64,000 nt of DNA from Rickettsiales bacterium UBA6177 (GTDB lineage: Bacteria > Pseudomonadota > Alphaproteobacteria > Rickettsiales > UBA6177): the NCBI GenBank assembly GCA_002422875.1, contig DITT01000027.1:11482-75481 (forward strand), in the 5' to 3' direction. Below the pieces are notes generated by a model, which saw only the letters and a program-made list of their open reading frames with translations, searched no databases and was not told the DNA's origin. Below, one piece after another: positions 55,479-63,750 of the stretch (the stretch's first letter is position 1; each line of letters opens with the position of its first letter). A program made the position numbers and the translations under genes.

Positions 55479-58274
55479 TTAACCAAGTTTATTTTTAATA
55501 TTTCTAATTTCTAGTTTTAACATTTTTCTTTTACTCTTATATTTTTGCTTTAAAGAACCAAAAAGAATTTTAGATAAAATTTTATATTTATAGTATTTTA
55601 TTCTTTTTCTTTTTAAATCTTTCTTTAATATTTGCTTTTGTGATAAAGATATTGTTTGTGCTTTTATTTTTTCTGCAATTTTATTTTCAATATTATCAAA
55701 TAAAATTTCCTCATAAAACGCTGTCTGACGGGCGTAGTACCACCATTTATCAGCATGTTCATGCTGTGGTGAGTTCCAAGGTTTTATATTACTTGTATAA
55801 TGAATAATTTTAGGATTACTCATCACTCTTTCGTACTCAATAACATTTACTCCATCTAGAAAAGAGAGGTTAAATATTTTTATGTGCCATTGGATATTCC
55901 AACTAGTATCAATTATGTTAAAATCCTTACCATACAAAGCGTTTAAAACATCTTGATCAGAGTATCTTGGAGTTCCAATTTCTTTAAGTTTAGCTATGCA
56001 TTTCTCTTCAAAATTATCTTTGATAGCTTCTTGTACATCTATTAGCATTACGCCAGCTTGTAAGTATCTTCTAGGGTCTTTTAGCTTAAGAACCTCTCTA
56101 TTATATTTTATATGGTCATTGCGAATAGCACCTAAAGCGATAGCTCCTGTTAAAACTTTAGAGTTGGTTTTTATCTCATAAAATTTTCTTATATCTTCTA
56201 AAACAATAGTATCAGGATCTAAATAAATTACTTTCTTAAAATTTTTAAATATCTTAGGGATAAAGAACCGTAAATAAGTACTTAATGTAAAATGAAAAGA
56301 AATTCGAAAATTGTTTACACCATAAGAATTTATTATTTTTCTTACATCAATAAATTTTATTGTTGCATTTTCATATTTAAAAATTTTGATAATTTTATTG
56401 ATAGTTTCATTTGATATATCGCAATAAATAATAAAAAAATTGAGAAAAACATTACTTTTAGAGTTTTTAATTACTGAATGGATACTTACTAATGTATAAT
56501 TAATATAGTTTTTATCACATGCGTATATTATTGGTATAGATTCTTTATCTTTGATTGGATATGGAGTATTAAATAATATTTCATCTACTTTTTGATATGC
56601 TGAAGATAAAAAATAGTTTTTTGTATCAATTTTTTTAATTGTATTATACCTACCTTCATTACCCATTGGGTTAGATATATAATTATCTATTATACTTTTT
56701 GATATATCTTTTGTAGTAAATCTCATTAAAAAATTTAATTGAACTAAATTTTTAAAATGCTGCATCTCACTCCAATAATTTTTGGTAACGTTTGCTGAGT
56801 GTTTTTTATAAAAAATAGTTTTTTTATTGATAGCTTCAATTTTTCCACCATATTTAAGAATTTGGTAATAAAGATTATAATCTTCTGTATAAGTATATTT
56901 TTCATTATAAGAAATATTACACTTCTCTAGAAAAGCTTTCCTATACATAACTGTTGAATGACAAATAAAATTGTTTATTGTTAGCATGAGCTGAGCAGCT
57001 TTATGATCAAAGCTTTCAGTCCACTTACTACTATTATTAATTTTATTATTTTCTATGATATCAAAATCAGTTGCCAATAAAGTAATTTCAGGATTTTTCT
57101 CCATATAATTTACTTGTACTTCTAATCTATTCTCATATGAGATATCATCATCATCATTAACAGCTATATATTTCCCTTGCGCTGCTTTATTTATCTTATT
57201 TCTACAAAAAGATATGCCTTTGCATTCTGTATTAAATAAGATTCTAACTCTTTTATCTTTTAAGGAATAATAATACAATAATTGTTTTGTTTCGTCGTCT
57301 GAGTAATCATCAACTATTATAAGTTCAAAGTTTCTATAGCTTTGTTTTAGAATAGAGGTTATCGTTTGATTCAACAAATCTTTTCTATTACGTGTTATTA
57401 TTGCTACTGAAACAAGTGGTTGTACATCTATCGTTTCTTGTGTATATAGTTGTCTATTTTTATAAAATGGTGATAATTGATAATATTTCTGTTGTTCTTC
57501 AGTAAATAATGAATAATTTAGATCGGTATTTTCAAAGCTTGTAAATTGTATTACAATAGGATCTTTGAATGTTTTATAGAAATCTTCATAATTATATATT
57601 TCATTTATTCTTTTATTATTTAAGGCCTCAAGAGAATGAAGCATAACATTATAATTATTAGGCAAAAATTTTATTTTTTTATAATAAACTAAGTTAACAA
57701 TTTCTTCAGCATTATTAGAGTTTTCTATTTTTTTTTGTATCATCTTTTTTATATAAGAATCATTAAATCTATGTTCTTCTAGGTTAACTAAAAGAACATT
57801 TGTATTAACGTACTGCTTAATGCTATTCTTATTAATGTAATACATTGGATCAATAACACCGGCACAAAAATTATTTTGTAATTCTTGGCTATATAAATCA
57901 TATAAATCTTTCTTTACTAAAATACTTCCTTTAAAATATATTATTCTTTGATATTTATTAAAATCTTCAATTTCAGTTAATAATAAGCAACTGTAATTTA
58001 TAAAATCTTGGATTATAAATTTTTGATATGAGCTGAATAATTCAGGGTAATTAATAAAGAAAATCTCACATTGAGTATATCTATCTTTTATAGAAGATAT
58101 TTTTTCTTTATTTTCTTCATTAAATTCACTAGGTATTAATAAATAGAATTTATAGAATGTATTTTGAGATTTGTTTTCTAAAGCAGAAATTATTGCTACA
58201 CTTATTGGCATTGAATAATTATCGTCAAGAGCCATTACTATAGGTATTATATTATTATTCATATTATTATTCAT
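55479..58274 (-). CDS. three-domain glycosyltransferase: degenerate GT8, GT2 (GT-A) and intact GT8
   Basis: 931 aa. Residues 9-270 are GT8-like (IPIVMALDDNY, NTNVLLVNL). In this domain DxD is replaced by YFKGS, DQD by AEE, and the H of H..KPW by Q. Residues 288-500 are GT2 (VSVAIITRNR...LIIVDDYSDDET...VNDDDDIS). Residues 580-860 are a canonical GT8 (IPIIYACDKNY, VIYLDPDTIV, LQAGVMLIDV, SDQDVLN, IIHYTSNIKPW). A Lys-rich C-terminal tail follows. Confidence 0.85.
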   Translation of the reverse strand: MNNNMNNNIIPIVMALDDNYSMPISVAIISALENKSQNTFYKFYLLIPSEFNEENKEKISSIKDRYTQCEIFFINYPELFSSYQKFIIQDFINYSCLLLTEIEDFNKYQRIIYFKGSILVKKDLYDLYSQELQNNFCAGVIDPMYYINKNSIKQYVNTNVLLVNLEEHRFNDSYIKKMIQKKIENSNNAEEIVNLVYYKKIKFLPNNYNVMLHSLEALNNKRINEIYNYEDFYKTFKDPIVIQFTSFENTDLNYSLFTEEQQKYYQLSPFYKNRQLYTQETIDVQPLVSVAIITRNRKDLLNQTITSILKQSYRNFELIIVDDYSDDETKQLLYYYSLKDKRVRILFNTECKGISFCRNKINKAAQGKYIAVNDDDDISYENRLEVQVNYMEKNPEITLLATDFDIIENNKINNSSKWTESFDHKAAQLMLTINNFICHSTVMYRKAFLEKCNISYNEKYTYTEDYNLYYQILKYGGKIEAINKKTIFYKKHSANVTKNYWSEMQHFKNLVQLNFLMRFTTKDISKSIIDNYISNPMGNEGRYNTIKKIDTKNYFLSSAYQKVDEILFNTPYPIKDKESIPIIYACDKNYINYTLVSIHSVIKNSKSNVFLNFFIIYCDISNETINKIIKIFKYENATIKFIDVRKIINSYGVNNFRISFHFTLSTYLRFFIPKIFKNFKKVIYLDPDTIVLEDIRKFYEIKTNSKVLTGAIALGAIRNDHIKYNREVLKLKDPRRYLQAGVMLIDVQEAIKDNFEEKCIAKLKEIGTPRYSDQDVLNALYGKDFNIIDTSWNIQWHIKIFNLSFLDGVNVIEYERVMSNPKIIHYTSNIKPWNSPQHEHADKWWYYARQTAFYEEILFDNIENKIAEKIKAQTISLSQKQILKKDLKRKRIKYYKYKILSKILFGSLKQKYKSKRKMLKLEIRNIKNKLG

Positions 58275-58286
58275 ATTATTAAAAGA

Positions 58287-62801: not shown

Positions 62802-62802
62802 T

Positions 62803-63750
62803 TTATAAACCTAATTTTTTCTGGAAATATTCAATTGTTCTATCAAGCCCTTCTGATAACTTAATCTTTGGTTCCCAAGCAAATTTTTCTTTTGCTAAGC
62901 TAATATCCGGTCTTCTTTGAGTTGGATCGTCAAGAGGTAAATCTTTATAAATAAAGTTTGATTTATTTTTTACTTTATCTTGTATCAAAGTAGCAAGCTC
63001 TCTAATTGTAAATTCTACCGGATTGCCTGTATTTATTGGACCGGTAAAATCTGGCCCTGCATTCATAACCTTATATATTAAATCAATTAAATCATCTACA
63101 TAACAAAAAGATCTTGTCTGAGATCCATCTCCATAAATTGTAATATCTTCACCTTTTAAAGCCTGACATACAAAATTACTCACTACGCGACCATCTTCAG
63201 GATCCATAAAAGGACCATAAGTATTAAAAATTCTAATAACTTTAATATCTGCACCATATTCTCTATGATAATCAAAGAATATCGACTCTGCACATCTTTT
63301 ACCCTCATCATAACAAGCTCTAATACCTATAGGATTTACATTACCACGATAATTTTCATTTTGTGGGTGTTCTAGTGGTTCACCATAAATTTCTGATGTT
63401 GAAGCTTGCAAAATAGTAGCATTATGCTTATTTGCTAGTTCTAACATATTTAAAGAGCCATACACACAAGTTTTGGTAGTAAAAATTGCATTTTTACCTT
63501 GATATCTAGGAGGAGATGCGGGACAAGCTAAATTATATATTTGATCTATTTTTTCTAAAATTGTTAAAGGAAAAATAATATCATGATCAATATAAGAAAA
63601 ATTTTTATGATTGAGTAAGTCTTTGATATTTTCAATAAAGCCTGAAGAATTATTATCAACAGAGATTACTTTATCACCATTTTTTAATAATTTTCGGCAT
63701 AAATTAGCCCCTAAAAAGCCATTACCACCGCTAACAAGTATAGTTTTCAT
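62803..63750 (-). CDS. UDP-glucuronate decarboxylase (UDP-xylose synthase-type extended SDR)
   Basis: 315 aa. It has ILVSGGNGFLGANL, ASTSEIYG, a YDEGKRCAE catalytic block, RIFNTYGP, and C-terminal DDPTQRRPDISLAKE. This pattern is typical of UXS/ArnA-decarboxylase-type enzymes. Confidence 0.8.
   Translation of the reverse strand: MKTILVSGGNGFLGANLCRKLLKNGDKVISVDNNSSGFIENIKDLLNHKNFSYIDHDIIFPLTILEKIDQIYNLACPASPPRYQGKNAIFTTKTCVYGSLNMLELANKHNATILQASTSEIYGEPLEHPQNENYRGNVNPIGIRACYDEGKRCAESIFFDYHREYGADIKVIRIFNTYGPFMDPEDGRVVSNFVCQALKGEDITIYGDGSQTRSFCYVDDLIDLIYKVMNAGPDFTGPINTGNPVEFTIRELATLIQDKVKNKSNFIYKDLPLDDPTQRRPDISLAKEKFAWEPKIKLSEGLDRTIEYFQKKLGL

Follow-up and report, generated by a model that had tools for sequence, protein, structure and literature searches.

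A putative Campylobacter-type UDP-L-arabinose cassette with a three-domain glycosyltransferase in an intracellular member of the Rickettsiales

Which glycan could an intracellular bacterium make with six genes for nucleotide-sugar synthesis and glycosyl transfer, and how might it reach the cell surface when no exporter gene lies nearby? The question is raised by an operon of Rickettsiales bacterium UBA6177, located within 64,000 nucleotides (nt) of contig DITT01000027.1 (positions 11,482 to 75,481; assembly GCA_002422875.1), a stretch referred to here as the window. The window is part of contig C32 of this assembly (G000), which comprises 1.07 Mb in 34 contigs with 30% GC and is 83% complete, and all negative results for the assembly given below refer to a genome of that completeness. 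At window positions 55479–63750, six open reading frames (ORFs) on the minus strand encode, in order, a UDP-glucuronate decarboxylase or UDP-xylose synthase (UXS), a UDP-glucose 6-dehydrogenase (Ugd), two family-2 glycosyltransferases (GT2a and GT2b), a GalE-family 4-epimerase and a 931-aa protein in which three glycosyltransferase domains are fused. This arrangement had been proposed in an earlier, sequence-only reading of the window, and its coordinates agree with the ORF listing. We put the probability at about one half that the operon is a horizontally acquired pentose-glycan cassette of the Campylobacter capsule type, which builds a short glycan of the lipooligosaccharide (LOS) type on the lipid A-core from UDP-glucose of the host.

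The three nucleotide-sugar enzymes are best read as a single linear pathway to UDP-L-arabinopyranose (UDP-L-Arap). A four-gene module from the HS:15 capsule locus of Campylobacter jejuni has been dissected biochemically (Simons, Narindoshvili and Raushel 2023, PMC10615251), and in the parts of that paper that treat the module, HS15.18 oxidises UDP-glucose (UDP-Glc), HS15.19 decarboxylates UDP-glucuronate (UDP-GlcA) to UDP-xylose (UDP-Xyl), HS15.17, annotated as a UDP-glucose 4-epimerase, converts UDP-Xyl, the only substrate reported for it there, to UDP-beta-L-arabinopyranose (kcat/Km 2.4e5 M-1 s-1), and HS15.16 is a pyranose-furanose mutase. The sequences of HS15.17, HS15.18 and HS15.19 were taken from the supplement of the same paper for comparison. 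UXS (315 aa, 62803–63750, minus strand), the first gene of the operon, is 73% identical to HS15.19, and its motifs GGNGFLG, STSE and ACYDEGKR align with those of HS15.19 and of human UXS1. It thus carries the marks of its class, namely S/T-x-E, YxxxK (YDEGKR) and the N-terminal GxxGxxG of a short-chain dehydrogenase/reductase (SDR) of the extended type. Its best solved relative is human UXS1 (4gll, E 4e-96, 325 bits), whereas ArnA reaches about 82 bits, and the NF008872 model scores 100 bits against a cut-off of 294. An ArnA-type or dTDP-sugar enzyme was rejected on these grounds and, judged by its homology, the protein is a true UDP-xylose synthase, as the sequence-only reading had it. Ugd (433 aa, 61500–62801, minus strand), likewise named correctly before, has three UDPG_MGDP_dh Pfam domains and a TIGR03026 match, all above cut-off; its top matches among solved structures are all UDP-glucose 6-dehydrogenases (4a7p, E 7e-118) and it is 60% identical to HS15.18.

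The third enzyme (322 aa, 58287–59255, minus strand) had been called GalE. Membership of the GalE family stands, since it passes the TIGR01179 galE model with 430 bits (cut-off 262), but the identity as a UDP-glucose epimerase does not: the protein is 67% identical over its full length to HS15.17 versus 39% to Escherichia coli GalE, and in pairwise alignments Leu286 occupies the position of Tyr299 of E. coli GalE, where HS15.17 also has a leucine. It is clustered with Ugd and UXS in the operon, an association that recurs in four other loci (L015, L016, L127 and L128), and is most likely a UDP-xylose 4-epimerase interconverting UDP-Xyl and UDP-L-Arap. An independent supply of UDP-galactose (UDP-Gal) as the main role of the enzyme was downgraded in view of the two identities. 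Because all three proteins resemble HS15.19, HS15.18 and HS15.17 this closely, one linear route from UDP-Glc through UDP-GlcA and UDP-Xyl to UDP-L-Arap is suggested. According to the same parts of the Campylobacter study (PMC10615251), the UXS-Ugd-epimerase route of HS:15/HS:41 strains supplies arabinose only, and the HS:15 capsule consists of L-arabinose and heptose, with neither glucuronic acid (GlcA) nor xylose (Xyl). The presence of Ugd and UXS therefore implies neither sugar in the product, and by analogy GlcA and Xyl may be mere pathway intermediates at this locus. UDP-Xyl and UDP-GlcA had been regarded as the two donors that the locus can make; both are predicted products, but the list is incomplete, as the pathway runs on to UDP-L-Arap. 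No Glf-like mutase was found in the assembly, either by tblastn with two Campylobacter queries or with the Pfam GLF model, so that the pathway ends at the pyranose as far as the assembly shows.

The starting compound may be taken from the host. Four full-length genes for TLC-type ATP/ADP translocases (C28:25264-26715, C2:1943-3394, C25:43681-45138 and C28:7586-8971; 382–579 bits) are present in the assembly, the family occurs in none of 14 control genomes, and the intracellular lifestyle assumed in the sequence-only reading is thereby supported. GalU, GalT, GalK and an RmlA-type nucleotidyltransferase were not detectable in the assembly. Rickettsia imports UDP-glucose, which is predicted to be converted to UDP-glucuronate and UDP-galactose for its lipopolysaccharide (LPS) (Driscoll et al. 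2017, PMC5615194). Given the four translocases, the undetected GalU and the precedent in Rickettsia, host UDP-glucose is the probable source.

The last gene of the operon (55479–58274, minus strand) encodes the 931-aa fusion, for which the order GT8-GT2-GT8 proposed earlier is borne out by both Pfam and an AF2 model. Pfam places GT8 at residues 11–226 (53 bits, cut-off 24, obtained with the N-terminal piece alone), GT2 at 289–451 (108 bits) and a second GT8 at 581–835. The AF2 model, based on an alignment of 25 rows (mean pLDDT 81, pTM 0.47), contains three confident GT-A domains, a disordered linker at residues 513–564, and helices at 854–903 and 907–930 with pLDDT 78–93. An assembly mis-join can be ruled out, since a letter-identical protein is called on three contigs of different assemblies, among them a 202-kb ENA contig and a Logan contig. 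The central domain (residues 286–510, window 56745–57419, minus strand) has the marks of GT2 enzymes (DD 321-322, DDDD 374-377, ED 464-465), and the C-terminal domain (residues 576–850, 55725–56549, minus strand) those of GT8 enzymes (YLDPD 684-688 with D686 and D688, DQD 773-775, H825 and KPW 831-833), which agrees with the earlier claim that both keep their motifs. The N-terminal domain (residues 9–265, 57480–58250, minus strand) was rightly seen to have lost all three signatures of an active GT8 enzyme, having YFKGS at 113-117 (K115-G116-S117) for YLDxD, AEE at 189-191 (A189-E190-E191) for DQD and Q243 for H..KPW, with the nuance that the nucleotide-binding DDNY (17-20), invariant in the alignment, is retained.

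Relatives that match the fusion over its full length help to explain the degenerate domain. An exhaustive search of 1.8 billion representatives returned P0029 (1306 aa, 36% identity), P0030 (982 aa, 34%) and P0079 (973 aa, 30%), the cluster of the last including a protein from an Oscillospiraceae metagenome-assembled genome (MAG), and the best full-length relative in GTDB is a 962-aa ORF (locus L018) of the alphaproteobacterial MAG RGIG8928 from the rectum of a water deer. All four keep YLDxD, DQD and H..KPW at the aligned positions of the N-terminal domain, so that the fusion appears to be a bifunctional derivative of a trifunctional GT8-GT2-GT8 family. The pseudo-GT8 domain is 35–37% identical to the active N-terminal domains of P0030 and P0029, the active C-terminal domain 32–34%. 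Conserved as well as an active domain and modelled with a pLDDT of about 90, the N-terminal domain is thus probably a folded pseudo-enzyme, catalytically dead yet not decaying; a binding or scaffolding module is a plausible candidate role, and nucleotide or acceptor may still be bound by it. The C-terminal tail (residues 851–931, 55482–55724, minus strand) forms two long helices with a net charge of about +18 (25 K/R versus 7 D/E in the last 86 residues) and is also found, conserved, in many single GT8 proteins about 360 aa long, which align with it up to residue 927 or 928. No transmembrane segment was found in the fusion (maximal 19-residue Kyte-Doolittle hydropathy 1.15), and synthase-dependent export by the protein was rejected for this reason.

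Known structures place the active domains within broad families. In sequence searches, the C-terminal domain is nearest to the GT8 galactopyranosyltransferase domain of WbbM (6u4b, E 1e-23), followed by LgtC (E 1e-11), and the central domain is nearest to residues 356–592 of the K4CP chain, which we take to be its GlcA-transferase site, to SpsA and to the N-terminal domain of PmHS2. LARGE1 and XXYLT1 gave no sequence match to the fusion at E<=0.001 among solved structures. Foldseek with the fusion model ranks WbbM, K4CP, LARGE1 and PmHS2 first (E 1e-17 to 1e-23, TM about 0.2–0.3, 12–17% identity). LARGE1 (E about 1e-18, 13% identity, TM about 0.22) scores no better than K4CP or PmHS2 and behind WbbM, and these fold matches are unspecific because tandem GT-A folds resemble any dual glycosyltransferase. 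LgtC superposes on one domain, the C-terminal GT8, with a TM of 0.82 on the length of LgtC, and GlyE (5gvv), the GT8 enzyme of the pneumococcal PsrP pathway, also appears among sequence and fold matches, weaker than WbbM and LgtC.

The paralogs GT2a (363 aa, 60367–61458) and GT2b (320 aa, 59383–60345), both on the minus strand and recognised as paralogs before, are tandem duplicates with 75% identity that score 136 and 132 bits, respectively, with the Pfam GT2 model. Their best NCBIfam model is NF007482, the model of E. coli WaaH, with 156 and 158 bits, far below the cut-off of 423 and the 633 bits of WaaH itself, and GT2a is 30% identical to WaaH over 232 aa. Judging from these scores both are WaaH-like enzymes but not WaaH, which transfers glucuronic acid onto heptose III of the core (PMC6358824). 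Among solved structures, GT2a is closest to an enzyme deposited as GalT1/CgT (5hea). Only GT2a has an additional hydrophobic and basic C-terminal extension of 43 aa, with the peak hydropathy window at residues 320–338. The two proteins differ most at residues 121–150, and their donors or acceptors could have been split after the duplication. A plus-strand ORF at 60317–60808 (163 aa), antisense to GT2a and GT2b, is probably spurious.

What the genome offers for priming and export narrows the choice of acceptor. All known O-antigen routes need an initiating transferase acting on undecaprenyl phosphate (Und-P), a flippase, ABC transporter or synthase, and a ligase (PMC12269835). None of the corresponding families was found in the assembly, whether ABC2_membrane (Wzm/KpsM), Wzy_C/WaaL, Bac_transf (WbaP) or Polysacc_synt/Wzx, and its only Glycos_transf_4 (PNPT) gene is MraY, beside murF; WecA was not detected. 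The same WaaL search found the ligase in 27 of 40 genomes of the order, the misses being mostly in the smallest genomes. Campylobacter-type capsules require KpsMTED together with KpsC/S. Capsule_synth (KpsC/S) gave no match in the assembly and KpsM, KpsE and KpsD none by tblastn; the sole Kps-type match is a KpsF/KdsD homologue, and the operon is flanked by an AlaX-like gene and unknown genes. Accordingly, neither the WbbM-type ABC-transporter set (WecA, Wzm/Wzt, WaaL) nor a Kps group 2-like set (kpsMTEDF with flanking kpsCS) is detectable in this genome. The statement that the window contains no exporter can be extended beyond its 64-kb end: none lies near the operon, up to the end of the contig in this assembly and over 5 kb upstream on the 202-kb ENA contig, or was found elsewhere in the assembly. 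[quoted passage not shown] The genome with the 962-aa fusion (G041) is also without Wzm, WaaL and Wzx matches, and LpxA lies 3 kb from its triple fusion.

We hypothesize that UDP-glucose, imported from the host, is oxidised by Ugd to UDP-glucuronate, which UXS would convert to UDP-xylose and the epimerase to UDP-beta-L-arabinopyranose, these steps being predicted from close homology to characterised enzymes. The four glycosyltransferase genes encode five GT-A domains, of which four are intact, namely the two WaaH-like GT2 enzymes, the central inverting GT2 and the C-terminal retaining GT8. [quoted passage not shown] In the weakest step of the scheme, the lipid A-Kdo core would serve as acceptor and the product would be a short oligosaccharide of the LOS type, not an Und-P-linked polymer; an MsbA-like exporter would flip the glycan and Lpt would carry it outward. 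Such direct assembly on lipid A-Kdo, in the manner in which GT8 and GT2 enzymes build LOS outer cores, is the most economical scheme, and MsbA and Lpt would suffice for export. The glycosyltransferase families appear to fit core assembly, as WaaH acts on core heptose and LgtC/WbbM-type GT8 enzymes are nearest to the C-terminal domain.

Several points weigh against this proposal. No enzyme was found in the assembly that would join the first sugar to Kdo: there is no GT9 heptosyltransferase, and the sole GT-B candidate besides WaaA is a weak match of 343 aa, whose gene sits beside psd. With 83% of the genome in hand, a single unassembled export locus would overturn the choice of acceptor. The closest relatives of the cassette serve Kps capsule synthesis and P0010, a GT8-GT2 relative of the fusion, adjoins Wzm/Wzt, so that the enzymes would be polymer-builders by descent, and the top fold matches are the bifunctional polymerases WbbM, K4CP, LARGE1 and PmHS2. 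In addition, the epimerase may have a side activity on UDP-Glc/UDP-Gal and hence supply UDP-Gal. A bolder variant, which we consider improbable, has the GT2 and GT8 domains of the fusion polymerise an alternating pentose chain (L-Arap or Xyl with GlcA or a hexose) on lipid A-Kdo while the dead GT8 holds the acceptor, again fed by host UDP-glucose and with no Und-P carrier, ligase or dedicated exporter. If true, such carrier-free polymerisation would be a fourth O-polysaccharide route, in a genome-reduced endosymbiont.

The main competitor of the LOS-type proposal holds that the fusion is a bifunctional capsule or O-polysaccharide polymerase, whose GT2 and GT8 domains alternate on a lipid primer, and that the genes for export and priming lie in the unassembled 17% of the genome. 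Besides the Campylobacter kps loci and P0010, it can point to a polymerase, WbbM, as the best solved relative of the GT8 domain, to Foldseek top matches that are all dual-domain polymerases, and to an inverting and a retaining domain on one chain, which is the layout of PmHS2 and LARGE1. However, six independent families (Wzm/KpsM, KpsC/S, KpsD/E, Wzx, WaaL/Wzy and WecA/WbaP) went undetected and, as priming, export and ligation genes usually lie at several loci, a 17% gap is unlikely to have taken all of them; the second genome with a triple fusion is likewise without matches to Wzm, WaaL and Wzx, and the fold matches would fit any dual glycosyltransferase. We therefore regard a capsule or O-polysaccharide polymerase as unlikely, while giving it more weight than the remaining alternatives. 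The undetected exporter also fits a decaying remnant, that is, a capsule cassette gained without its export genes, weakly or not expressed, and now being lost. One of the five glycosyltransferase domains is already dead, the locus has a transposase fragment and a dispersed palindromic element at its flanks, and the GC content of the glycosyltransferase genes is low for the genome (see below). Decay is nevertheless hard to square with six intact and tightly spaced ORFs, a G+C content at third codon positions (GC3) ameliorated to that of the genome, a dead domain that is conserved like an active one and folds confidently, a retained duplication of the GT2 genes and a protein that is identical in three assemblies, and reduced genomes shed useless genes fast; we think this account has little to recommend it.

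Other readings dispense with a lipid-linked glycan. GT8 and GT2 enzymes O-glycosylate the serine-rich adhesins of streptococci in the cytoplasm, and the operon might similarly glycosylate a bacterial surface protein such as an adhesin or autotransporter, which would require neither lipid carrier nor exporter. GlyE is among the sequence and fold matches, the best solved relative of GT2a is 5hea, and some relatives carry a Maf/MptE-like domain. However, GlyE matches less well than WbbM and LgtC, the locus encodes no target protein, capsule is what the nearest characterised relatives of the cassette produce, and FliC, FliD and FliS were not found by tblastn of the assembly, for which reason flagellin glycosylation was rejected; protein O-glycosylation as such seems doubtful to us. 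The sequence-only reading had favoured an analogy to LARGE1, which combines a GT8 xylosyltransferase with a GT49 GlcA-transferase domain (PMC9746966), and with it an alternating Xyl/GlcA polymer, matriglycan-like and possibly mimicking the host. UDP-GlcA and UDP-Xyl would both be made at the locus, the retaining GT8 family contains xylosyltransferases (PMC9746966), K4CP, the best match of the central GT2, is the closest structural homologue of the LARGE1 GlcA-transferase (PMC9746966), and LARGE1 is itself among the Foldseek matches. What stands of the analogy is the layout, a retaining and an inverting GT-A domain on one chain, but not the membership: the second active domain is GT2 and not GT49, sequence searches returned no match to LARGE1 or XXYLT1, the GT8 domain is nearest to bacterial alpha-galactosyltransferases, and no exporter was found. 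The analogy is weakened further by the predicted function of the epimerase, which extends the pathway to UDP-L-arabinose, the same three Campylobacter enzymes feeding a polymer without GlcA and Xyl. LARGE-like host mimicry is thus unlikely, and a LARGE1-like polymerase in particular has very little probability. Finally, intracellular bacteria employ GT-A glycosyltransferases with DxD motifs as effectors, and the fusion could be a secreted enzyme that glycosylates host proteins. Such an effector could use UDP-sugars of the host and would not need a co-transcribed nucleotide-sugar pathway, the fusion has no secretion signal and no eukaryote-like module, and its relatives occur in free-living gut bacteria including Firmicutes; this explanation is hardly credible.

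The sequence relationships of the block are explained most simply by its horizontal acquisition, whichever way the transfer ran. The nearest UXS homologues in the database are from Campylobacter (73–77% identity), as against 53–58% for the UXS proteins present in six of the 40 genomes of the same order, the block recurs in Campylobacter, and an ortholog of the fusion was found in none of those 40 genomes, which together argue for a horizontal origin; the ortholog is also absent from all 40 relatives of the L018 genome that were searched. Capsule loci of C. jejuni and C. volucris contain kpsM, kpsT, kpsE, kpsD and kpsF, three GT2 genes, UXS, Ugd, GalE-like and Glf-like genes and DUF4422/GT8 fusions. 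Two GT2 genes together with UXS, Ugd, epimerase and GT8-type fusions form a block in C. molothri (L016) too, and likewise on a contig of 40% GC, where UXS, epimerase and Ugd are 70%, 69% and 58% identical, respectively, to the window enzymes and a GT2-GT8-MptE fusion shows 30% identity over 602 residues. Further relatives occur in Orbus and in Oscillospiraceae. In GC3 the operon does not stand out from the genome, and the total GC of the three glycosyltransferase genes, 0.236–0.259, lies at or around its 5th percentile (0.258). L018 was the informative hit of the GTDB locus scan, the other 79 loci matching little beyond the GT2 domain, and a profile made from the four full-length proteins retrieved an excess of generic GT2 proteins and missed the triple-domain relatives. 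In L018 a GalE-family gene comes before the fusion, with an AIPR (abortive-infection) gene between the two (L018:1139-2857), and an ApeA-like gene follows the next GT8.

The intergenic gaps of the operon measure 1, 41, 21, 127 and 12 nt from UXS to the fusion gene. A promoter and terminator scan, which the AT-richness of the DNA made uninformative, found 72 signals with 68 expected and no terminator. The contig of the present assembly stops 1.3 kb outside the window, where divergent small ORFs of no known function come next. On the 202-kb ENA contig, the 5 kb upstream of the operon hold two small unknown ORFs, a transposase fragment, an SDR and LptF/G, and the downstream neighbours are an AlaX-like gene, an unknown gene and two genes for methyl-accepting chemotaxis proteins. 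The transposase fragment, a DDE-type piece of 107 aa (L013:2735-3058, ENA contig k141_1707510), lies about 1.5 kb upstream of UXS, between the operon and the SDR/LptFG block and thus past the end of the contig in the present assembly. Directly downstream of the operon (window 53572-55046), a 235-aa protein with an AlaX-like trans-editing domain is encoded, its gene overlapping by 4 nt that of a 256-aa protein that has no Pfam match. A 100-bp element with inverted termini (AGTGAATT...AATTCACT) is found at 48973-49072, near marR, and at 55251-55350, just downstream of the fusion gene, the two copies being about 73–81% alike. They were rejected as a specific bracket of the locus, as blastn finds 12 further matching stretches on nine contigs and the element is a dispersed palindromic repeat family.

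Other candidate glycosyltransferases of the genome are few and, besides the weak GT-B-like gene, comprise a stand-alone GT8 and a broken DUF4422 gene. The stand-alone GT8 (L122, C14:6388-7392; 334 aa, 120 bits), at a contig end next to glpX, has a 78-aa N-terminal extension and shares 29% identity with the fusion's C-terminal GT8. DUF4422, a furanosyltransferase family of the GT111 type, is represented by a gene (155 bits) that is split over two contigs (L129, C19:64-633, and L130, C23:23-181) and lies between dnaE and serS; for the furanose donor of such an enzyme no Glf-type mutase was detected in the genome.

For the annotation of the locus, the obvious terms (GalE, and GlcA and Xyl as donors) are replaced by a predicted three-step UDP-L-arabinose pathway of a type so far characterised only in Campylobacter capsule synthesis. 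Part of a capsule machinery would thus have moved into an obligate intracellular alphaproteobacterium in which no export apparatus for capsule or O-antigen is detected. If the glycan is placed on the LPS core, it would be a pentose-bearing and heptose-less LOS made from host UDP-glucose, and an example of surface variability in reduced endosymbionts. The fusion can also be regarded as a natural experiment, in which one domain of a trifunctional glycosyltransferase family has turned into a conserved pseudo-enzyme. What is new here is the combination of a Campylobacter-type UDP-pentose module with multi-domain glycosyltransferases in an endosymbiont, and nothing about it is categorically new.

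Among known systems, the L-arabinose module of C. jejuni HS:15/HS:41 is similar in that three of its four enzymes are shared (Ugd 60%, UXS 73%, epimerase 67%), are clustered and are adjoined by GT2 genes and GT8-type fusions. It differs in its Glf-like mutase, for which neither operon nor assembly has a counterpart here, so that the end product would be the pyranose, in its kpsMTEDF/CS genes, none of that set being detected as such in the present genome, in gene order, which is UXS, Ugd, GT2, GT2, epimerase in the window, and in its host, here an obligate intracellular alphaproteobacterium. WbbM of Klebsiella pneumoniae O2a, a galactan polymerase combining GT111 and GT8 domains, is the closest match of the GT8 domain and the top fold match, and is likewise a soluble multi-domain enzyme that acts at the membrane. 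However, the partner domain in the fusion is GT2 and not GT111/DUF4422, an extra dead GT8 is present, and Glf, Wzm/Wzt, WecA and WaaL are undetected in this genome. The LPS/LOS core enzymes WaaH, a GT2 enzyme that transfers GlcA onto heptose III, and Neisseria LgtC, a GT8 enzyme, act directly on the lipid A-core and use neither Und-P nor an exporter; the WaaH model is the best for GT2a and GT2b and LgtC superposes well on the C-terminal GT8. In contrast to the fusion both are single-domain enzymes, the WaaH model scores (about 157 versus 423 bits) lie far under the equivalog cut-off, and the genome is without a heptose core.

LARGE1 (GT8 and GT49), K4CP (GT2 and GT2) and PmHS2 (GT2 and GT45) resemble the fusion in carrying tandem GT-A domains on one chain, with fold matches of E 1e-17 to 1e-19, and LARGE1 and PmHS2 also in pairing a retaining with an inverting domain; UDP-GlcA and UDP-Xyl would be available at the present locus. 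The fusion has neither GT49 nor GT45, is only 12–17% identical to these enzymes and contains a third, dead domain, and its helical part is C-terminal, whereas theirs is an N-terminal stem. A further likeness is to the uncharacterised proteins P0029, P0030, P0079 and the 962-aa protein of the water-deer MAG, which share the domain order over the full length at 30–36% identity and the same basic tail, and in which the N-terminal GT8 keeps the three motifs that the window fusion has lost.

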